A stretch of DNA of 64,000 bases. Origin: Escherichia coli (GTDB lineage Bacteria; Pseudomonadota; Gammaproteobacteria; Enterobacterales; Enterobacteriaceae). The stretch lies in the NCBI RefSeq assembly GCF_050320075.1, contig NZ_CP190018.1. The stretch is one strand, 5' to 3'. The notes below the pieces were generated by a model, which saw only the letters and a program-made list of their open reading frames with translations, did no database searches and was not told the origin of the DNA. Below, in pieces: positions 12,779 to 35,604 of this stretch (the first letter of the stretch is position 1; each line of letters opens with the position of its first letter). The translations under genes were made by a program, and so were the position numbers.

Positions 12779-12856
12779 TGGCGAATTAATCAGCAGTCAG
12801 CAGCGCGGCACTTGCTAAGGAGAGCGTAAGGTTTATAATGCCTTACGCATCTCGAA

Positions 12857-12930
12857 GCGGGCGTAGTTCAATGGTAGAACGAGAGCTTCCCAAGCTCTAT
12901 ACGAGGGTTCGATTCCCTTCGCCCGCTCAA
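12857..12930 (+). tRNA. glyU: tRNA-Gly (anticodon CCC)
   Basis: GCGGGCGTAGTTCAATGGTAGAACGAGAGCTTCCCAAGCTCTATACGAGGGTTCGATTCCCTTCGCCCGCTC; acceptor stem pairs, anticodon loop CTTCCCAAG, T-loop GGTTCGATTCC; 3' end reads CAA rather than CCA. Confidence 0.9.
12913..12928. repeat. attL core: 16-bp direct repeat (tRNA-Gly 3' end)
   Basis: TTCCCTTCGCCCGCTC identical to 32061..32076. Confidence 0.7.
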
Positions 12931-13094
12931 AACAAACATTTCTCAACGTCTACTGAAGTCCATCAAATCCACGAATATCAAGCCTTTCAGCCATTTTCAT
13001 AGCTTATTAACGTCTACTCACAACTACCAGAATCTACACACAGAAGTGTATAGTAATGCGTATAGGACAAAATTTATTTTTTGGAGCTATACAC

Positions 13095-14309
13095 ATGCTG
13101 CTTTCAGACCTTGCTATCAGGCGCGCGAAGCCGAAAGAAAAGGCTTATACACTCAATGACGGTAACGGGCTTTCGTTACTCATTGAGCCGAACGGCTCGA
13201 AAGGGTGGCGACTACGTTACAGATTTGCAGGAAAGCCCAAAATGTTGTCGTTGGGCGTGTACCCTGATGTGTCTCTGTCTGATGCCAGAGCGGCAAGGGA
13301 TGAGGCTAAAAGGCTTCTTGCTGGTGGTATAAATCCAAGTGAGGCCAGAAAAGCTCAAAAGCGAGAACAGGCGAGCAAATTTGGCAATACTTTTGAGGGT
13401 ATCGCTCGCGAATGGTATGAAAAGCGGATCGACAGGTGGTCATCGTCATACGCCGAGGAAATGATCGAGACGTTTGAAAAAGACGTTTTTCCGTACATTG
13501 GCGGCAGGCCGATCGCAGAAATTAAGCCAATGGAGTTGCTTGCGGTTCTCTCCCGTCTTAATGACCGTGGGGCGACCGAAAAATTGCGTAAGGTTCGCCA
13601 GCGATGCGGCGAGGTGTTCCGGTACGCAATCATCACCGGACGCGCTGAATATAACCCCGCACCAGATCTGGCAAGCGCATTTGCTCCACACAAAAAAGAG
13701 CATTATGCCTATTTGAAGGCCGACGAACTGCCGGAATTTTTCCGCGTTCTTAATACGTACACCGGAAGCCAGATCGTCAAGCTGGGTATGCGATTATTGA
13801 TTCTGACAGGGCTCCGGCCAGGGGAATTACGACAGGCAGAATGGCAGGAGATCGATTTTGATAATCGTTTGTGGGAAGTGCCTAAAGAACGAATGAAGAT
13901 GCGCCGTCCTCATTGTGTGCCGCTTTCAGAACAGGCGATCGCTATTCTGGAACAGTTAAAACACATGACGGGGCAGTATCAGTTTATTTTCCCTGGTCGA
14001 ATCCAGCACAGTAAGCCGATGAGTGAAATGGCGATGAACGTGCTTATTCGTCGTATTGGCTATTCTGGGCGCGTTACTGGTCATGGGTTCCGGCACACGA
14101 TGAGCACGATTTTACATGAGCAGGGCTATAACACCGCGTGGATAGAAACGCAGCTTGCACACGTTGATAAGAACTCAATTCGTGGCACGTACAATCATGC
14201 GCAATATCTGGACGGGCGGCGCGAGATGCTCCAGTGGTACGCCGACTATATGGACTCACTGGAACAGGGCGGCAACGTGGTGCATGGCAAGTTCGGAAAA
14301 TGTGGATGA
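13095..14309 (+). CDS. tyrosine integrase, P4-type
   Basis: ORF 13056..14309; N-terminal LSDLAIRRAKPKEKAYTLNDGNGLSL and catalytic-domain HGFRHT ... Y residues typical of P4/CP4-57-like integrases. Confidence 0.85.
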   Translation: MLLSDLAIRRAKPKEKAYTLNDGNGLSLLIEPNGSKGWRLRYRFAGKPKMLSLGVYPDVSLSDARAARDEAKRLLAGGINPSEARKAQKREQASKFGNTFEGIAREWYEKRIDRWSSSYAEEMIETFEKDVFPYIGGRPIAEIKPMELLAVLSRLNDRGATEKLRKVRQRCGEVFRYAIITGRAEYNPAPDLASAFAPHKKEHYAYLKADELPEFFRVLNTYTGSQIVKLGMRLLILTGLRPGELRQAEWQEIDFDNRLWEVPKERMKMRRPHCVPLSEQAIAILEQLKHMTGQYQFIFPGRIQHSKPMSEMAMNVLIRRIGYSGRVTGHGFRHTMSTILHEQGYNTAWIETQLAHVDKNSIRGTYNHAQYLDGRREMLQWYADYMDSLEQGGNVVHGKFGKCG

Positions 14310-14431
14310 CTGGTTGAGTATACAGTAGTAGACTTTGAGCGACGAAAGAAAAAGCTGTGTCTAGGGTCGCTCCCGAAAAACCGTATACCTCGACGGGCTG
14401 GCACAGCCACTACAGTAGAGGACGCTGAGGT

Positions 14432-15235
14432 GTGCGTATGATTGATATTCATGCCGAATTAAACGAATACAAAAAAGATTTTATTTCTTTACGTGAATTT
14501 CTTGAGGTCGTGCTTAAGGTCGCTGGTGATGATTATGATGTTTCAGATCTCATAACTTGGATACTCAGGAGAATAAGCGGAGAACATATCCGCCTGTACA
14601 CAGTAAATGAATTTAAGCTGTTGGAATCTTTTTGTAACCCGTATCGGGATGAATTTGATTATGATGTTCTTTATAGAAATCTGGATGCGGTTCGGAAACA
14701 TGGTTGTTTACCTGGTGAGAGGGATGAAAATGGTTTTCTGGTGTCCGGTTATTGGGAAGATCCCGAATTTGAGAACATTGGATTTATAAGGGGTGAAATT
14801 TTCGCAATTTTTCCCGATGTCCTTGACGCGTTAACGAAGCTGGAAGGCGCTAACTCTTCTGAAAATGACGAGGTACAAGGACGCGATATTGAAAAGAAAG
14901 AGTTGCGTACAGAGGATGATTTATTATCCCAAATCGCAATGCTGGAAAGAGAAAACGCAGAGTTAAGGGCAAGGATAGAGCAGTTAGAGCAAGAGCGCCC
15001 GATACACTTATATAAATACTGGGATAAAGACCCATTAGCTAAGGCTATTGAGATTAGAAACAGAGAGTGGGCCAATTACGATCCAGAAAATGATTTTGCC
15101 ACCAGGGGAAATCAAGAAGCGATAACCAGGGAGCTTAAGCAGTGGGGGGCAAGTAATGCTCTTGCAACGCTCATAGAGAGGACTGCCTGCCCTATTAACC
15201 GAGACAACAGCCAAAAGAACGCAAAGCCGGATTAA
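14432..15235 (+). CDS. hypothetical protein (267 aa), acidic with coiled-coil segment
   Basis: Long ORF in AT-rich DNA between int and alpA; heptad-like LSQIAMLERENAELRARIEQLEQE; no family recognised. Confidence 0.5.
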   Translation: MRMIDIHAELNEYKKDFISLREFLEVVLKVAGDDYDVSDLITWILRRISGEHIRLYTVNEFKLLESFCNPYRDEFDYDVLYRNLDAVRKHGCLPGERDENGFLVSGYWEDPEFENIGFIRGEIFAIFPDVLDALTKLEGANSSENDEVQGRDIEKKELRTEDDLLSQIAMLERENAELRARIEQLEQERPIHLYKYWDKDPLAKAIEIRNREWANYDPENDFATRGNQEAITRELKQWGASNALATLIERTACPINRDNSQKNAKPD

Positions 15236-15248
15236 CGCACCATACCGC

Positions 15249-15399
15249 ATACCCTGAGGGTGATTTACTGTTACCCTGAGGGTATTTTTTTATCTTCCCC
15301 GTCAATTTTACCATCACCCTTAGGGTAGATTTCCTCCCGATTACCATCACCCTTAGGGTTAATTTCCTTCCGGTAACCATTAGGCCTGAGGGTATGAAA
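15249..15399. repeat. array of five palindromic ACCCT(G/T)AGGGT motifs (putative regulator binding sites)
   Basis: taccctgagggt x2, catcacccttagggt(a/t) x2 within a 33-bp direct repeat, ggcctgagggta; located just upstream of alpA. Confidence 0.6.
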
Positions 15400-15462
15400 A
15401 TATTCGTTATTTCTGTGCCATGATTACCTCGTCAAATTGAGTAGACGTTATGAGGTAAATAG

Positions 15463-15660
15463 ATGTCAAATACGCTTATTCGTTTAACAGAAGTTCAGCG
15501 TAGAACTGGATATAGCAAGGCATGGATTTATCGCCTTATGGGGCAAGGTAAATTTCCTGCATCAGTTAAAATTGGCTCGCGAGCGATTGCTTTCGTTGAA
15601 AGTGAAATTGACGAATGGATCAATCAGCGTATTGCCGAATCACGCGGAACGGCTGCCTGA
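15463..15660 (+). CDS. alpA: AlpA-family transcriptional regulator / excisionase-like (MerR-type HTH)
   Basis: 65 aa, LTEVQRRTGYSKAWIYRLMGQGKFP motif characteristic of AlpA/phage regulatory protein. Confidence 0.8.
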   Translation: MSNTLIRLTEVQRRTGYSKAWIYRLMGQGKFPASVKIGSRAIAFVESEIDEWINQRIAESRGTAA

Positions 15661-15735
15661 TTAAATAGCTACGGGTTATTGCCCAAGCTATCCACTAGCA
15701 AATAAAAAGTAACTTAATTCGATAGCGGAGTTTTT

Positions 15736-16560
15736 ATGAAACTGCGAAAAACGCCCGTACAGGGGCAGGGCTTTGTTCGGCCTGAAAACCAGAATCTGCA
15801 AAATTTCGGCGAAATTATCCCGGTTATTTCCGGCGTTATTGGCGGGCGTGAAGCCGCTGTTGTTAGCGCAAAAGCGTTACACAAAGCGTTGGGCGTGGGA
15901 AAAGACTTCTCTACATGGATCACTGATCGTATCTCTGAATATGACTTCACCATTGGGTACGATTACTCAGTCCATAAAACAATTTCCCCAAATTTGGGGA
16001 AAAGCCCGAATGGCGAGGCTTACAGCAAGATTAAGCACTCTGGCAGACCCGGTAAAGACTATCTGTTAAGTGTCGGAATGGCGAAAGAACTGGCAATGAT
16101 CGAACGCACCGAACAGGGCCGCGCCGTTCGTCAGTACTTCATCAAATGCGAGGAGGAGCTACACAAAGTAGCGCCAGTGCGTTCCGCAGCGTTACGCCGT
16201 GAACTGAAAGCCCGTATCACCGTTGCCAGCTACTTTAAGCCGATGTGTGCCGCGCTGGAGGCGTACCGCGCTGAACTGGGTAAAAACACGCTCCAGCACC
16301 ACTACACCACGGAAGCCAATATGCTGGCGCGTATCGTGCTGGGTGGCATGACTGCAAAACAGTGGGCGCAGGCGAACGGCATCACAGGCGAACCACGCGA
16401 CCACATGAGCACGCTGCAGCTTGAGCACCTTTCTTACCTTGAGCAGAGCAATATCACGCTGATTGAGTTAGGCCAGGACTACCACCAGCGGAAAGCTGAA
16501 TTAATTCGTCTTTCGCAACGCTGGTTAGCCCGCCGCATGGAGGTGAGCAGCCATGCGTAA
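15736..16560 (+). CDS. phage antirepressor-like protein (KilA-C-like domain), tentative
   Basis: 274 aa; position after alpA and adjacency to a Bro-N gene; domain call is from memory of motif content only. Confidence 0.45.
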   Translation: MKLRKTPVQGQGFVRPENQNLQNFGEIIPVISGVIGGREAAVVSAKALHKALGVGKDFSTWITDRISEYDFTIGYDYSVHKTISPNLGKSPNGEAYSKIKHSGRPGKDYLLSVGMAKELAMIERTEQGRAVRQYFIKCEEELHKVAPVRSAALRRELKARITVASYFKPMCAALEAYRAELGKNTLQHHYTTEANMLARIVLGGMTAKQWAQANGITGEPRDHMSTLQLEHLSYLEQSNITLIELGQDYHQRKAELIRLSQRWLARRMEVSSHA

Positions 16561-17110
16561 ACCTGTCTTTTATGCCGGGCGCACTGAAATCTCTGTCATT
16601 AAATTCGATGACATTCAGGTGCGCATAGTGAGTATCAACGGCGAGCCGTGGTTTGTTGGCGCTGATGTGTGTGCTGCGCTGGAAATCAGCAATGTTACTG
16701 ATGCTGTTTCAGTTCTGGATAACGACGAGGTAATGACCCTAGCTTTAACCGAGGGGCATTCCGGTAAGCGTGGTGGTGCCAGAAGCTGGAATGTTGTCTC
16801 TGAATCAGGTTTCTACAAACTGATCGCCCGCAGCCGTAAAGCTTCCACACCTGGCACATTTGCGCACCGTTTCAGTAACTGGGTATTCCGCGAGGTTATT
16901 CCTTCAATCCGCAAAACGGGGAGTTATGGTGTTCCGTTTGCCATGCTGAATGATTTCAGTAAACGCCAGGCTGCATATCAACAGGAAGCCAGCAAACGCG
17001 GTTACAGGTTACAGCAATGCAAAGAGGCAAAAGATGCACTGGAACGAGAAGAGCGGGCGCTATGGCGTAAATATCAGCCTGATTTTCTGGAGGGTGAAAG
17101 CAATGTGTAA
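16553..17110 (+). CDS. Bro-N domain protein (prophage antirepressor family), tentative
   Basis: 185 aa; N-terminal FxFxxxxVRxxxxxGEPWFV pattern typical of Bro-N; start overlaps previous stop. Confidence 0.5.
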   Translation: MRKPVFYAGRTEISVIKFDDIQVRIVSINGEPWFVGADVCAALEISNVTDAVSVLDNDEVMTLALTEGHSGKRGGARSWNVVSESGFYKLIARSRKASTPGTFAHRFSNWVFREVIPSIRKTGSYGVPFAMLNDFSKRQAAYQQEASKRGYRLQQCKEAKDALEREERALWRKYQPDFLEGESNV

Positions 17111-17278
17111 CGATCCGAACGTTACAGAAAGAAAAAGCGCCCCGTTGCTGGATAACAGGCAAAACAAAGGCGACCGGGATAGGTCGCCAGTGGGAACAAA
17201 GGAAATCAAACGCATCGCCAACAATGCCAGATTTGCGGCTGGTGGGCAATGTGATCAGTGTGCTGGCTTGCTGGTGGG

Positions 17279-17476
17279 CTATTCCTGCTCTTTAGCATCG
17301 CCATACTGCGATGTTTTCCAGGTATGCGATCCCATTTTTGTGCGCCTGTACTCTTTTAAGAACTTCTCAAGGACAAACGCACATGGTGCAAATCTTTCCT
17401 GTTCTTGTTCGCTTACCGCATTTTTGCGTTGTTTTTTCCTGGATGAGGATAATTTCTTTAATGATTTGTCAGTCAT
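17279..17476 (-). CDS. small basic protein, diverged paralogue of the adjacent 65-aa gene
   Basis: 65 aa; shares C-terminal ...AKEQE and upstream nucleotide similarity with 17534..17731. Confidence 0.3.
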   Translation of the reverse strand: MTDKSLKKLSSSRKKQRKNAVSEQEQERFAPCAFVLEKFLKEYRRTKMGSHTWKTSQYGDAKEQE

Positions 17477-17533
17477 CGTAGATACCTGTAACCCTGTGCG
17501 CCACAGTTCACCGCACCACGGCGCTGGTGATGG

Positions 17534-17731
17534 TTACTCCTGCTCTTTGGCCTTCCGGCGCTGTTCATATTTTAATTTGCGTCCACAGGCATCTAAGACC
17601 CATGCGGAAAAATTAGCACTAGGATTAGTTAATTTTTCTTGTTCAACACTGGCATCAATCCCATCTATAAGCTCGTGCGGGAATCGAATATTTTTCTTTG
17701 CTGATTTGTTGTTTGTGTTTCCGCTAGACAT
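17534..17731 (-). CDS. small DNA-binding-like protein (YlcI/YnfO-like, tentative)
   Basis: 65 aa; IRFPHELIDGIDA ... NFSAWVLDAC resembles small prophage regulators as I recall them; divergent from the rightward operon. Confidence 0.45.
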   Translation of the reverse strand: MSSGNTNNKSAKKNIRFPHELIDGIDASVEQEKLTNPSANFSAWVLDACGRKLKYEQRRKAKEQE

Positions 17732-17757
17732 TGGTACACCTCACTTAAATGGATTTG

Positions 17758-17841
17758 ATGGGCGCACACAATACAGCAAAAAAAGTGAGAAGTTAAGTAT
17801 TGACATGTGCGCACACATGATTTTAATCTGTGCGCACAGTT
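17758..17841. promoter_or_regulatory. three (T)GTGCGCACA palindromes overlapping a TTGACA -35 box (operator/promoter region)
   Basis: ggcgcacaca (17761), TTGACAtgtgcgcacacatg (17801), ctgtgcgcacag (17828). Confidence 0.5.
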
Positions 17842-18132
17842 TGGGTTGCATTGCTCAAATTAAGCAACGCCCCGCAGTGCTCGCAACACATGCAGGGCGT
17901 CTAACCACCAACGATAGAAAGCGTATCGAGGTAGCTATGTTAAATCATACCACACACCCGCAAGGGCGGGACTCGCACAACCTGAATAAATACATCTGGC
18001 GTTTTATCGCCCTGAGCACCGCACAACCACGCGTAATACACATCGAGGCCGCCAGCGAACAGGAAGCCCGTCAGCAATCCCCGGCTGGCTGCGTGATGGT
18101 ATTTACTGCCCGCATCCGTCAGGGGGAATACT

Positions 18133-18390
18133 ATGCGTGATGAACGATTTATTCTTCTGGAGCAAAAATTCAGTGAAGCGCCAAAAAATGAAATTGATGC
18201 TCTTTTGCATATCGCGAATATGCTAAAAGTAGCAACGTTCCTTATAGTTTCGAATCTGGAGCATGAAACGGCGTTAGATATACTGAACAGTGCTGTCGAT
18301 TATTCTGAATATATTGCCGAGGATAAATACAGGCAATTACCAGATTTGTTAGCCCATAAATATAAAGAAGAACCTCACACCGGGAAATAA
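18133..18390 (+). CDS. hypothetical protein (85 aa)
   Basis: ORF in operon context upstream of the replication protein. Confidence 0.4.
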   Translation: MRDERFILLEQKFSEAPKNEIDALLHIANMLKVATFLIVSNLEHETALDILNSAVDYSEYIAEDKYRQLPDLLAHKYKEEPHTGK

Positions 18391-18392
18391 AC

Positions 18393-18695
18393 ATGAAGAA
18401 GATTAAATTTACTGGCTTAAATGCCAGCGGACAGACTCACCCGAAAATCAGGATCGGGGATATTTTCCGGGATAAATATGGTGACAGCGTGGTTATTAAT
18501 TCCGTGTATGAACGGCACATTACATACCGCCGCGCAGGGTACGACTATGACTGTGTGATGCCCGTTCATCAGTTCCGGCGTGATTTTTCACTGGTATGTG
18601 CAGTACCACGCAGTAAGCCCACCAGTAAAGAGAAAGCACGGGCAAATATTCAGGTAATAAAGAACATGATTAACGCATTCAGGGGCAAGAAATGA
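18393..18695 (+). CDS. hypothetical protein (100 aa)
   Basis: ORF tightly spaced, its stop overlaps the next start. Confidence 0.4.
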   Translation: MKKIKFTGLNASGQTHPKIRIGDIFRDKYGDSVVINSVYERHITYRRAGYDYDCVMPVHQFRRDFSLVCAVPRSKPTSKEKARANIQVIKNMINAFRGKK

Positions 18696-27645: not shown

Positions 27646-30401
27646 TGAAACAGGCATGTGTTGAAGCTATTGCGCAGACACTTGGTCGCCAGCCAAAGGC
27701 TGATGAGCTGAAAAATATCGAAGATCGTATCAAAGAAGCAGTGCAACATGTGCACAGAAAGAATGCAAAAGAAGGCAAAAGTGGTATTCCTGATGCTCAA
27801 ACATACATGGATGCTGCAGAACTGGTACGCCAGCGTGTGGTTCATGATGTGTACAAGAAAAGACAGCGTGTTGCCCAGAATGCGATCGCCATCAGTAAAA
27901 TTACTGACACTCTCGATGCTAACATCCCGCCTGATCAGCAGACACCTGTTAATTTGCAGCAGTTTATTTTTGCTGGCCGACGATCGAGAGACAAAGCTGA
28001 TATCTCCGTTGCTTCTGCTGAAGAGCTTGCAATTGGGGCATATCAGGACTGGTCCCGTCAGCTCAGTGCTGAACTTCTAAAAGCAGGTGATGACGTCCGC
28101 AAATTCTTCGAGCAGAGCAGGGCGCTTGGAGAGCAGCGGTTTCGGAGTGTATTCGACAGGCAGGCGGCAAAGTCTGCACAACTCCAGATCCTGAAAGAAA
28201 TTTATGGCGAAGATACCGGGAATCCCCTGGCGAAGAAAATTGCACAGATTTGGAAGGATGTAACAGGCCGTGTTCGTCATGAGATGAACGACAACGGCTT
28301 TGACATAGGCCTGCGAGAAGACTGGCATACGCCATATGTGGATGATGCTGACCTTATTCGCAATGCCGGGCGCGAAGAATGGCTGGCATCGTTACCAGTG
28401 GCAGAGCAAGCTACAGCACGTCTTTCAGGTCGCCAGCCACCGATTGAGTTTGCCCGCCAGAAATGGGTTGATGACGCTTACAACACGCAGGATCGCAGCA
28501 ATTACGTTAATCCTGACGGCAGCATTATGAATGACGTCGAGTACCGTCAGGCACTGGAAGCGATCTTTGAAACGAAGGCCACTGATGGGGCAAACAAAAT
28601 TGAGCCCGGTACATTTATGGGAGCCGGAGGAATAAAGAGCCGTGGTTCTCAGCACAGGGGGATGGCGTTCAAGGATGCGCAGTCACACTTCGCCTATATG
28701 GAGCGATACACTCAGCAGCCGCTGGTGGGGGTGATGATGTCGCACCTGCAATCATCATCCAGGGATTTGGGCGTCGTTAAAGCCTTTGGTCCGGACGCCG
28801 AAAGAAACTTTTCCCTGGTACTGGATCGCATCTATAAGCGCGCAGTAACAGGCGGGAAACGCAAAAAAGAAATGGAGGATGAGGCCAAATTAGTAGCCCG
28901 TATGTTCAACTCAATGGCTGGCCTAAATGGTGTCGCTTCATCGAGTGTGTTCTCTTCAGCTGTTGGTGGTCTGCGTAACCTGATGACCAGCGCCATGCTT
29001 GGCACCAGCGTACTGACAGCAACCAGCGACCAGGCAATTATGCGGGCAAATGCGCAGGCGCTGGGCTTTACCCGTGGTGGAATGCGGCTTTCCGTTAACA
29101 CTATCAAAAACCTGTTTAGTGGAGATGCCAAAAAGGCGAATGCTGAACTCGGTCTGCTGGTGGATTCACATGCTGCTGTGGTTTCGAAAATGGGCGGGTT
29201 TGACTTGTCTCGCGGCATAACTGGCTGGTTCGCAGAGAAGACACTGAAGTGGTCCGGGCTGATCGCTATGGACCGCGCAAACAAAGCGTCGTTTGGTCTC
29301 CTGATGTACAAAAACATTGGCGAGCTGACCAGAAAATTTAAGACGCTGGACGATATGAAAGGAACCGATAAAACCATTCTGGCTAACAAGGGATGGAGCA
29401 ATGAGGACTGGGCCATCATGGCAGCGGCAGAACTCAGGCCGATGACTACTGCCGGGCATATGGGGATGACGCCAGACGCGATTTACGCTGTGCCCGATAA
29501 CGTAATCGCCGACATTATGGCAGACCGTATTACCCGGATTCGTGCCGGGAGTGAAAAGGCACTGGCAGCACTTGGAGATCTCCCTCCAGAACGCCTGAAA
29601 CGGATGAAAGAAGCATTCGACGCTGAGGCTGAGCAGACCATCACGCGCATGATTCGTAATGCACGCGCTGAAGCAGCCCATAAATTGCTGGGAATTACGC
29701 ACGGTGAGATGACCAATGCTGTGACCACCGCTACGGGTATTGATACATATGCCCGTGATGATGCTGGCGAGTTAATGAAGAGCTTCATGCTCTTCAAAAC
29801 AACCCCATTTGCTGGATTTCGGCAACTTGTTAACAGAACACGGGATTTGGACACCGTTCCGGCCATTAAATTTCTGGCCTCATATATCGGGGGAACAACT
29901 CTTGCTGGTATGTTTGCGATCCAGATGAACAGTTTGTTAAATGGTAATGATCCGCTGGATATGACAAAACCAACCACATGGGTTCAGGCTTTACTGAAAG
30001 GTGGTTCGTTCGGTATCTACGGTGATTTTATTTTCCAGGACCATACGCAATATGGCTCCAGCATCGGTGCCACTATGGGTGGCCCTGTGTTGAGCTTTGC
30101 AGAGCAGTTAACAAAATTACTGATTACTAACCCACAGAAGGCTCTACAGGGTGAAGAAACATCATTCGGTGCCGATGCACTGAAAACAGCCCGCATGATC
30201 ACCCCATTCGCAAACCTGTGGTATGCGAAAGCGATAACCAATCACCTGATATTGCAACAACTTCAGGAGATGGCAAACCCTGGTTACAATGATCGAGTAA
30301 GGGACCGCGCGCAACGGGAGTTCGACATAACGAGTTGGTGGGAACCGGGTGCTATTGCGCCACGTAGAGCACCGGATTTTGGAAAGGCGGTGGGGAACTG
30401 A
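27645..30401 (+). CDS. large hypothetical protein (about 918 aa)
   Basis: ATG at 27645 overlaps previous stop (TAATG); ORF track 27624..30401. Confidence 0.65.
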   Translation: MKQACVEAIAQTLGRQPKADELKNIEDRIKEAVQHVHRKNAKEGKSGIPDAQTYMDAAELVRQRVVHDVYKKRQRVAQNAIAISKITDTLDANIPPDQQTPVNLQQFIFAGRRSRDKADISVASAEELAIGAYQDWSRQLSAELLKAGDDVRKFFEQSRALGEQRFRSVFDRQAAKSAQLQILKEIYGEDTGNPLAKKIAQIWKDVTGRVRHEMNDNGFDIGLREDWHTPYVDDADLIRNAGREEWLASLPVAEQATARLSGRQPPIEFARQKWVDDAYNTQDRSNYVNPDGSIMNDVEYRQALEAIFETKATDGANKIEPGTFMGAGGIKSRGSQHRGMAFKDAQSHFAYMERYTQQPLVGVMMSHLQSSSRDLGVVKAFGPDAERNFSLVLDRIYKRAVTGGKRKKEMEDEAKLVARMFNSMAGLNGVASSSVFSSAVGGLRNLMTSAMLGTSVLTATSDQAIMRANAQALGFTRGGMRLSVNTIKNLFSGDAKKANAELGLLVDSHAAVVSKMGGFDLSRGITGWFAEKTLKWSGLIAMDRANKASFGLLMYKNIGELTRKFKTLDDMKGTDKTILANKGWSNEDWAIMAAAELRPMTTAGHMGMTPDAIYAVPDNVIADIMADRITRIRAGSEKALAALGDLPPERLKRMKEAFDAEAEQTITRMIRNARAEAAHKLLGITHGEMTNAVTTATGIDTYARDDAGELMKSFMLFKTTPFAGFRQLVNRTRDLDTVPAIKFLASYIGGTTLAGMFAIQMNSLLNGNDPLDMTKPTTWVQALLKGGSFGIYGDFIFQDHTQYGSSIGATMGGPVLSFAEQLTKLLITNPQKALQGEETSFGADALKTARMITPFANLWYAKAITNHLILQQLQEMANPGYNDRVRDRAQREFDITSWWEPGAIAPRRAPDFGKAVGN

Positions 30402-30715
30402 TGACGAGAGATAAAATTGAATATATTGCTTCTCTTAAATATGAAGCTGAGAAATGGAGAAGGATTGGCTGGTGGGGAACATTAATATCACTCTCTGCTT
30501 TACTTATAGACTCCTGGTTCAGACATATTGATGCAGCATCATTACTTTTTGAATCAGCAGTACTTGGTGGATTCATTTGCTGTTGGGGTGGTAATTATGA
30601 TCGGGCGTCCAAACATAAGAGAGAACTTGACGCGATATGTTTTGCTTTATTCGGTAAGGATTACGAAAGTTCTGACCTTGATATAATTGAATTCAACAAA
30701 ACGGAACTATCGTGA
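30401..30715 (+). CDS. small membrane protein (104 aa)
   Basis: Start overlaps previous stop (TGATG); two hydrophobic helices (WWGTLISLSALLI, AVLGGFICCWGG). Confidence 0.5.
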   Translation: MTRDKIEYIASLKYEAEKWRRIGWWGTLISLSALLIDSWFRHIDAASLLFESAVLGGFICCWGGNYDRASKHKRELDAICFALFGKDYESSDLDIIEFNKTELS

Positions 30716-30723
30716 CATGTCAC

Positions 30724-30749
30724 AGGCCGCTTTCGCGGCCTTGTTTTTA
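30724..30749 (+). terminator. intrinsic terminator ending the cargo operon
   Basis: AGGCCGCTTTCGCGGCCT followed by TGTTTTTA. Confidence 0.6.
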
Positions 30750-31417
30750 ACGAATGCCACCGCCGCCCGGGCGGGAATTCGCAGATAAAAAAGCACGCTG
30801 CACGGTTTTATTAATACTTATACCATTAGGATTGATCCTTCAATGGACAATCCTTCCATCGTGTGGCCAGCCATTCATATTCTTTGTCTTTTCTTCAGTA
30901 TCGGCTTTGCATCTTCTACACCCTGAAAGATGTCGTTTTATGGTGTATCTGATGATTTATTCCCTAACAATAGATATTCGAAAAATTAATCAGTTAAAAC
31001 AATTATTTGGATAATTTCAGGTAAAACTATCTTAATCTTCTGGTGGATCTCAATGCGTAGTGACGGTATCGGGATTAAGGGCGTGGATATTCGCGATATA
31101 TGCCGCTACACCCCTCAACAGTAATAGATATGAGCTTTTCACGCTCTCCTTTCACTGCTGAGAACGGCAACAACGTGCCACAGGAACGCGCTGTAATCGA
31201 TTCTGACGCACTTAATTGCGTTGGGTAATGGTTTTTGCCAGCCTGTGGGGGTAACTCTGTTTTATGAGGCTTTGGCTATAGTGCAAAAATACACTTTGTC
31301 TTGCCTCTCAATTTGATGAGACTGGAACGACAACAGGACAGACCACCAGCAACAGTTACCGTATTCAGCCGTTCTGTGGCACCAGTGGAACTATCAACCC
31401 CTGCTTTCAGAAATGTG

Positions 31418-31573
31418 TTTGCGGGTTATTTTGGGGCGTTTGCGGGTTATTTGGGATGTTTTGCGGGTTATGTGATGCTTGAATAATGAACAGTGTATTT
31501 TGCAACATATTGATACTAAAGAACAAAAAATAGTTAGAATACTAAGATAACCCGGTAACCCGCATAACCCGCA
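31418..31573. repeat. iteron cluster 2: three GTTTGCGGGTTAT and three TAACCCG(C/G)A copies flanking an AT-rich spacer
   Basis: gtttgcgggttatt x2, ttttgcgggttatg, then ataacccggtaacccgcataacccgca; same motif as cluster 1. Confidence 0.6.
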
Positions 31574-31978
31574 CTGTTTTGTATATATATACGAAAAATT
31601 GCATTCAGGAGGGGGGGAGCGAAATCCCTACAATCCATTGCTTATGGGACCGCCCGCCTCGTCAAATTTTTACACCCGCGAAATAAAAAAATACTTCACG
31701 CTGGTGGGCATGATGCTGATATGGGAGGCTTCCATAACGCCACCATTCGGAACTATGCAAATCTGCATAGAAAAGGGGATGCCTGATACAATACCCTCGC
31801 CCGATAAAATCACACCGATAAACTCATCTGCCACGAGTAGAAAGAGCGAACGAACCCGATACGCAGTAATGCTTGTCGGGTACAGCTTTTTAAGGCGGCT
31901 GTAGATATCAGGCCATCCGTGATCATCCACCAGCGAGATAGCCGATAACGATGACGCATAACCCTCAAGCGAGGGATA

Positions 31979-32003
31979 AATGTGTATAGAAATGTGTATA
32001 GAA
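31979..32003. repeat. tandem ATGTGTATAGAA repeats (candidate integrase arm-type sites)
   Basis: aatgtgtatagaa-atgtgtatagaa about 58 bp from attR; related gtgtatag / ctatacaca motifs near int at 13040-13092. Confidence 0.35.
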
Positions 32004-32060
32004 TTGATTTTAGAACTCGCAGGATTCGCGCTATTACTGGCCTTGTGTGATGTTGTATTG

Positions 32061-32076
32061 TTCCCTTCGCCCGCTC
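32061..32076. repeat. attR core: 16-bp direct repeat of the tRNA-Gly 3' end, followed by CA (intact CCA context)
   Basis: TTCCCTTCGCCCGCTC identical to 12913..12928. Confidence 0.7.
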
Positions 32077-32575
32077 CAGAATCTCCCCAGGTGGAGAAGA
32101 CTAAAAAAGTCTTCTCTGTCAGCAACTTAAACAGTTACCTATTTAATTTGCTTAGGAGTTCTACCATTGTGATCCGCCCTTAGTAACTGTCACGTTAAGT
32201 TACACGGTGAGATGACAGTATAACCTAACGTTGGCGGCAGTTGCACCTCTCACACCGCGATAGCACAACGTGAAGATAAAGCCCATCCTGGCATTGTAAT
32301 GTCATCGACAGACTGAACACACGCATTTAAGCCCGATGTGCGGCCTTGTGGCTGCGTAAACAGGTTTATGGTGATATTGGTCCTTGCAAACCATATGCAA
32401 GCTCTATCAGCGTTTCAGCCACGCTCCCAACGGGTACACGGTTATCCTGATAAGGTGTGATCTTTCTGACAATCTGATGAAGTCGCTACGCTCCCGCTTG
32501 TTGCTGTATCACCAACGGGGCTTTATGGTTTCTATTGTCTATAATAATCTCACAATTCCCCTGCATGAGGTTGAT

Positions 32576-34340: not shown

Positions 34341-35267
34341 TTTCATTTTCCTTCTGTGTTGATTTGTGTGTAGTGATTATTGATCGTGTTGATTAGGTGT
34401 GTAAAGGACTTTTTTCACTACGAAATTCGAAGGTTTTTAGTGTGGTGATTTAGCCTGCTTTATCACTACACGTCTTGCATGAGAATCATGTAGTTACATT
34501 TTGGTAAAATTAGCAAGCTATTAAATAGTGTGTTTATTTTGAAAAAATAATTTTTTGTTGCATTAAAGGAAACTTGTTCAATAAATGATAGAACGTTTAT
34601 TGAGCAACAATTTTGCAGTGATGCGCTATATGCCGCATTACATAAGGCTTTGCTGATGATAATGTAAAAGTGAAGAAAGCTAACATTGCTCTTTTAAGCT
34701 ACTTTTCATTGAATTTTTAGTATGGAATTACATAGGGATAAACTATGAATATTCTATGATTTACACGAGATATTCTTGCTGTTTAATTCCGGCTTTGGAG
34801 ATCAGGCATTCGCAAGAATACGCTAACGCGTTGCCTGAAAAGCCATTGCACATAATAGAGGTGAGCGTATAGCGAACTATCAATGTGATCATTGCACGAA
34901 TGATAATGAGTGGATATAGATTCTATATATCGTTAGATTGTAGTTTGATAGTTAATGTGTAATGTAGATTGTATGAGCGTATAGCGAATGTTAGTTAGAT
35001 CAACAACAAACTAACCTTTAAATCTCTTTTATCTTCTCATAGATATGGCTATGCGTAGCAACCGAAGGTTAGCCAATCATCTCTATGCAGCCGTAAGGCT
35101 GTTTTGCATGTAATAGTTGTTTGTTGTTGTTAGACAGTTACCAATTTATAGATCAGAGATAGATGTGAGCGTTGAGCGATACACTAATCATAACAACATC
35201 TTCTTACTTTTTAGTTAGTTGTTAGTAGGTTATTGTTATGCGCGCTATTAGCGCATGTATAAAGGTA

Positions 35268-35370
35268 TCATTTTTATCTAAAGGGCTTTAGACATTTTTG
35301 ATACCTTTTTCATCTCTAAAAAAGTGTAATTTTTATCTAAAGGGGCTTTAGACATTTTTTACACCTTTTT
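35268..35370. repeat. two copies of an approximately 42-bp direct repeat
   Basis: atttttatctaaagggctttagacatttttgataccttttt and atttttatctaaaggggctttagacattttttacaccttttt. Confidence 0.6.
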
Positions 35371-35553
35371 CTGTGCAAGACACTTACCAGTGTGCACAAT
35401 ACTTATGCTTTTCTAAAGCCGGGAATTTTTAAGTTTGATTGATCAATTGTTAACTTTAAAAGTTACTTTTAACAATCACTTAGACGATCTAAAGCCGCAA
35501 TTAACATAATATAAGTTGACATGCAAGCACTTTTTACCGTATAGTGCGGGTTT

Positions 35554-35604
35554 CCTACCTACCCAGGAAATGAGTTCCTACCTACCCAGGAAATGAGTTC
35601 CTAC
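35554..35604. repeat. 23-bp tandem repeat, about 2.2 copies
   Basis: cctacctacccaggaaatgagtt x2 followed by partial cctaca. Confidence 0.65.

Follow-up and report, generated by a model that had tools for sequence, protein, structure and literature searches.

The glyU gene and the attachment sites

The window analysed here, a stretch of 64,000 nucleotides of Escherichia coli DNA, contains a single tRNA gene, glyU, which encodes tRNA-Gly(CCC) and has xdhABC and actS as its upstream neighbours. ARAGORN placed the tRNA at 12857-12928. By position, the acceptor strand CGCCCGC occupies 12920-12926 and is followed by the discriminator T (U73) at 12927, C74 at 12928, A at 12929, and A76 at 12930. The gene therefore encodes a 3' end other than CCA, reading T-C-A-A at 12927-12930. 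In agreement with this, PGAP annotated the glyU tRNA as 71 nt long, without CCA, in the near-identical RefSeq genome YZLc1-3 (NZ_CP123240.1), and as 74 nt long in all other strains examined. A simple scan found no terminator that would define the glyU 3' trailer in either context. Coordinates of the main features are collected in Table 1.

Table 1. Positions of the principal features of the glyU locus within the window
Feature	Position	Strand	Details
Promoter-like site 5' of glyU	12812..12839	+	TTGCTA, 16-nt spacer, TATAAT; 10/12 matches in a consensus scan; consensus match only
glyU, tRNA-Gly(CCC)	12857..12930	+	Same as the K-12 gene through C74; 3' end CAA, not CCA; ARAGORN and alignment with K-12 and nine island-bearing strains
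attL core (18-bp block)	12913..12930	+	TTCCCTTCGCCCGCTC[A]A; matches attR at 17/18 positions
Variant base	12929	+	A in place of C75 in the CCA terminus; position 1065533 of NZ_CP123240.1
Island body, ~19.1 kb	12931..32060	+	Genes from the PGAP annotation of near-identical YZLc1-3; present in some genomes, absent from others
Tyrosine integrase, 404 aa	13095..14309	+	165 nt downstream of the tRNA; Pfam Arm-DNA-bind_3, Phage_int_M, Phage_integrase, E 2e-26 to 6e-33
Cargo, four overlapping ORFs (843/686/918/104 aa)	23054..30715	+	First three homologous to Salmonella phage epsilon15 gp15, gp16, gp17
attR core	32061..32078	+	TTCCCTTCGCCCGCTCCA, the displaced glyU 3' fragment; the DNA beyond it is what adjoins glyU directly in island-free strains

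Comparison of the two att cores revealed 16 identical bases, a C/A mismatch, and a final A. Only 0.01 matches to the 18-mer with up to three mismatches would be expected by chance in the window, and no copies of the tRNA 3' end were found there beyond attL and attR. The sequence-only reading had stated that glyU ends in CAA and the distal repeat in CCA; both were read correctly and at the right coordinates (CAA at 12928-12930, CCA at 32076-32078). In the sister copy carried by strain AH19D088, the repeat was perfect at both ends (18/18).

Empty sites were identified in the island-free strains D3, LR-50, OHT76-1, and N64. Each matched window positions 32061-32500 at 100%, with a tRNA-Gly annotated under the match, and in each glyU-CCA was directly joined to the sequence that follows 32078 in the window. 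Because of this junction, positions 12931-32078 are an island of ~19.1 kb that has entered the glyU 3' end. The glyU site is likewise empty in K-12 and Ch1, where glyU-CCA is accompanied by other flanks. The att layout proposed earlier, with the tRNA beside the integrase at attL, a CCA fragment at attR, and CCA in island-free strains, was thus borne out; we also looked for island-free strains encoding CAA, and those examined encode CCA. Judged from these sequence comparisons, the island is a tRNA-gene-targeting, tyrosine-integrase insertion in the glyU 3' end that arose by ordinary site-specific recombination. Across the public assembly collection, an identical integrase protein is recorded in 2,239 blocks.

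An attP-type junction was detected in the metagenome contig Ga0209547_100127 (L023), where the reverse strand of positions 1-260 reads from the island right end through TTCCCTTCGCCCGCTCCA into the island left end. This relative is ~95% identical at the left end and is not the same copy as that of the window; the ends of the contig do not overlap, and the junction represents either an excised circle or a tandem array. In strain 08-00022, the island left end and core were preceded by sequence of another integrase-bearing element rather than by glyU, which suggests that islands can be stacked in tandem at the glyU hotspot. ETEC1747 and NZ_CM163382.1 each had two matching places in one genome. The attR core of SCU-105 (~39160-39176 of its locus, L013) has lost one C, reading TTCCCTTCGCCGCTCCA, and retains its CCA end; this 1-nt loss shows that point lesions also erode att remnants in other strains.

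Island cargo and the right flank

Besides the integrase, the island encodes an HTH regulator, AntA/AntB, BRO-N, Icd-like, DUF4222, and DUF927 proteins, SSB, ProQ/FinO, a PerC pseudogene, and a phage virion-protein module. The frameshift in the PerC-family regulator gene (22394-22619) is annotated in YZLc1-3, SCU-105, and AH19D088 alike; being common to all three, it was inherited and is not the assembly error of one genome.

The virion-protein module follows the gene order of epsilon15 gp15, gp16, gp17, and gp18. Its three large ORFs matched phrog_992, phrog_1145, and phrog_684 in PHROGs with E values down to 1e-294, and the 918-aa protein shares 88.9% identity with epsilon15 gp17 (tblastn). 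The 104-aa ORF had no match of its own, and its position is that of gp18. A lysozyme or transglycosylase-like domain was found in the cargo, and epsilon15 gp15 is a lytic transglycosylase. We also considered the cargo as a defence system. Neither Pfam nor PADLOC, searched for such systems, returned a match to the cargo ORFs, and this candidate was rejected, as PHROGs and tblastn both pointed to epsilon15-like virion proteins. An integrase-bearing island carrying only a podovirus virion-protein module is unusual and may merit an examination of its own; among its possible identities are a mosaic remnant and a satellite of epsilon15-like phages.

The site itself is well known. glyU is an insertion hotspot and the location of the ETT2 type III secretion cluster (PMC2808357, PMC4313913). 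In the genomes compared here, the ETT2 cluster lies downstream of glyU in some strains and a second mobile element in others, and the island is therefore one more insertion at a known hotspot. In the window, a second mobile element lies directly right of attR, from 32079 to ~45500. It encodes a serine recombinase, several hypothetical proteins, and a major capsid protein (~40939-41967), and has a tyrosine integrase gene at its far end (44280-45455, minus strand). A related second element abuts glyU CCA directly in island-free N64. No third copy of the tRNA 3' end that could belong to the second element was found in the window. Further right lie an IS1 copy (~45497-46194) and ETT2 remnants, including a LuxR-type regulator gene, ygeH, ygeG, and yqeK. 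In Ch1, glyU is directly followed by an ETT2 block of ~19 kb with genes for the type III secretion apparatus, and this block is absent from the window.

Short intergenic tandem direct repeats were also observed in the two elements, at 15308-15373 (2 x 33 nt), 31417-31458 (2 x 21 nt), 35258-35371 (2 x ~59 nt), and 35552-35597 (2 x 23 nt, the pair being identical). These may be iterons or regulator-binding sites.

Origin of the CAA end

The sequence-only reading held that the element had supplied an imperfect copy of the tRNA 3' end. Generalized to the island, this would mean an attP that intrinsically carries CAA, so that each integration swaps CCA for CAA and the mismatch marks the crossover. 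Such a model predicts the variant at attL and CCA at attR, as found, and in this single copy a mutation of attP before integration is compatible with the data. Several copies of an element are needed, however, to judge whether the tRNA end that it supplies is imperfect, and here all others supply CCA. We identified 80 complete E. coli genomes in which the island left end adjoins glyU; attL reads CCA in every one of the 79 besides YZLc1-3. SCU-105 and AH19D088 are among the copies with CCA at attL, and their integrase protein is identical to that of the window. All 10 further assemblies with an identical integrase likewise read CCA, and a junction scan that allowed either base recovered C at position 75 in 11/11 metagenome or viral contigs, including the attP-type junction of L023. 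CAA was thus found in none of the 79 genomes, 10 assemblies, or 11 contigs, and the repeat of AH19D088 is perfect at both of its ends.

Junction searches gave the same picture. When the 160-nt attL junction of the window was used as the query, only YZLc1-3 matched at 100%, and the next class, at 99.4%, carried one mismatch. With the CCA junction of SCU-105 as the query, 18 records matched at 100% and YZLc1-3 fell to 99.4%. Swapping CAA for CCA in the query gained exactly one match in each identity class of the relatives (from 96.9 to 97.5% and from 99.4 to 100%). In the alignment, the junctions of 9/9 relatives, which span ~77-99% identity over the island left end, read CGCCCGCTCCA-AACAAAC, that is, CCA. 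The SCU-105 island differs from that of the window by 11 substitutions and two single-base indels in 19.2 kb, and the variant base is one of the 11. We also used the last 41 bases of the gene as a query, which matched 5,408 E. coli genomes. Among the matches listed, only YZLc1-3 was identical to the end, and all other glyU matches listed stopped at C74.

As a property of the island family, an intrinsically CAA-ended attP is refuted by these sequences, and we regard the model as a whole as exceedingly improbable. Because all other island copies and the attP-type junction of L023 read CCA, the 18-bp copy of the glyU 3' end in attP is perfect. Integration of such an attP would normally regenerate an intact glyU with an encoded CCA. 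On the available comparisons, CAA is private to one lineage and not a property of the island. This check guards against over-reading a single mismatch between att repeats.

The A at 12929 is probably a real and recent substitution at C75, private to the lineage of this island copy. A single C-to-A change would have occurred in attL after integration or shortly before integration. The window and the RefSeq record of YZLc1-3, its nearest complete genome, differ by four substitutions (26024, 31411, 45703, and 60273) and no indels in 64 kb, and both read CAA. The window is either a sister isolate of YZLc1-3 or another version of the same assembly. Since the A is shared despite the four other differences, either it passed to two isolates by descent or it persisted through re-polishing. 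An error of base calling or polishing left in the assembly of a strain that really encodes CCA would also account for a variant that is a singleton, both among the 5,408 genomes (in the matches listed) and among all other island copies. In addition, at the two island-internal sites that differ from the RefSeq record (26024 and 31411), the window has T and A against C in all relatives; should the window and the record be versions of the same assembly, these C-to-T and C-to-A changes from the consensus of the relatives would be substitution errors of the same type. Nevertheless, the A is present in both sequences although they differ elsewhere, and the variant is a substitution, whereas the commoner long-read error is an indel in homopolymer length. 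By our own estimate, about one genome with a private SNP in a given 3-nt target is expected among 5,408, so that a singleton of this kind is not itself a sign of error. We consider an error unlikely, while granting it a real chance.

Selection for the substitution was also weighed: an attL-attR mismatch might impede excision and so keep the island in place, or the change might down-tune tRNA-Gly(CCC). Mismatches in the overlap region affect tyrosine recombinases, and strand exchange must take place within the 18-bp identity block that contains the variant. However, the overlap region could lie anywhere in those 18 bp, the variant occurs in one lineage only and without recurrence, and att remnants decay neutrally elsewhere, as in the 1-nt deletion at the SCU-105 attR. 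We therefore regard functional selection as very improbable, and a real, recent, private C75-to-A substitution remains our preferred reading.

The mismatch had also been taken to locate the crossover in the terminal bases of the acceptor stem, and this did not hold. Taken together, attL, attR, the empty sites, and the attP-type junction confine strand exchange to the 18-bp block of identity, which starts with the final two bases of the T-loop and continues through the 3' strands of the T-stem and acceptor stem as far as A76. As the substitution is private and recent, it carries no reliable information on where within this block the crossover took place. If it predated integration, it would place the crossover only 5' of C75, anywhere in the 16-bp block at 12913-12928.

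The flanks were compared with a view to the order of the two events. No genome in the collection had the same island with both of the same flanks, and only one record spans attR. The closest chromosome examined was that of Ch1, with one difference from the window over 12.9 kb of the left flank; it is without the island, and its ETT2 on the right is intact. Left-flank matches were found in Ch1 and 10 other genomes, none of which is among the island-bearing records listed. N64 has the right flank in common locally, with only ~97% identity overall.

Consequences for tRNA-Gly(CCC) and relation to known systems

Every tRNA gene of E. coli includes the CCA, and repair is the only role of the CCA-adding enzyme Cca; a C at the 3' terminus strongly inhibits RNase T, which trims 3' trailers (PMC5824355). 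With a real substitution, the transcript would read ...U73-C74-A-A-A-A-C-A-A-A... and could not be trimmed to a usable CCA end. In the pathway we infer, 3' exonucleases would strip the A-rich trailer until RNase T is slowed at the 3'-terminal C, leaving a tRNA that ends in C74. Cca would then add C75 and A76 and yield a normal tRNA, probably in a lower amount. Given a real substitution, rescue of the CAA-ended tRNA-Gly(CCC) by Cca along these lines is plausible. The proposal in the sequence-only reading that a CAA-ended tRNA would need the CCA-adding enzyme is accordingly reasonable as an inference, in line with the repair role of E. coli Cca (PMC5824355).

The tRNA encoded by glyU reads GGG only, and the glyT tRNA-Gly(UCC) reads both GGA and GGG (PMC7461829). 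Because glyT also reads GGG, loss of the encoded CCA in glyU is probably tolerated. We consider it quite unlikely that the substitution is both real and consequential, with tRNA-Gly(CCC) wholly dependent on Cca and a core mismatch that could reduce excision and help to fix the island.

In its architecture, the locus is a textbook tRNA-targeted island insertion of an already known kind, and its unusual CAA end is a variant of one genome. The Islander database is built on the signature of genomic islands that enter the 3' ends of tRNA genes via tyrosine integrases (PMC4383910). The present island shares with these an intact tRNA adjoining the integrase, a displaced fragment (here 18 bp) as the direct repeat at the far end, an attP, observed as a junction in a relative only, whose tRNA 3' fragment restores the gene, and empty sites in related strains. 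It differs only in the one substitution in the CCA end of one genome, and there is otherwise nothing unusual.

The island also resembles the P4-like satellites of Enterobacterales (PMC8628076, PMC9122126), with which it shares a tyrosine integrase with an N-terminal arm-binding domain beside a tRNA, an Icd-like gene, a large DUF927 replication-type protein, and a variable cargo region at the far end. Unlike in those satellites, the cargo here is the epsilon15-like gp15-gp17 module and not a recognised defence system. The DUF927 protein is present, and none of the capsid-hijacking genes psu, sid, and delta appears in the PGAP annotation. As these three are not annotated, the island was not classed among the P4-like satellites.

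Genes without an encoded CCA, whose tRNAs rely on Cca, include those for many Bacillus subtilis tRNAs and, in E. coli, for some of the tRNAs of phage T4. Like glyU in the window, these genes encode a non-CCA end, and trimming followed by nucleotide addition by Cca is needed. Unlike glyU, they are conserved and have a dedicated processing route, whereas the change here is a one-base lesion that keeps C74. We rejected the notion that glyU is a tRNA gene intrinsically without CCA: CAA was found in one of 5,408 E. coli genomes (among the matches listed), the other island copies read CCA, and the CAA end is therefore not conserved.

Overall, the finding matters little in itself: the sequence was read correctly, but its interpretation went too far. 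Should the base prove real, the strain would offer a convenient natural system for seeing how E. coli processes a tRNA without an encoded C75, with no open question depending on it. If the substitution is both real and consequential, this would be a natural E. coli in which a chromosomal tRNA gene has lost its encoded CCA.
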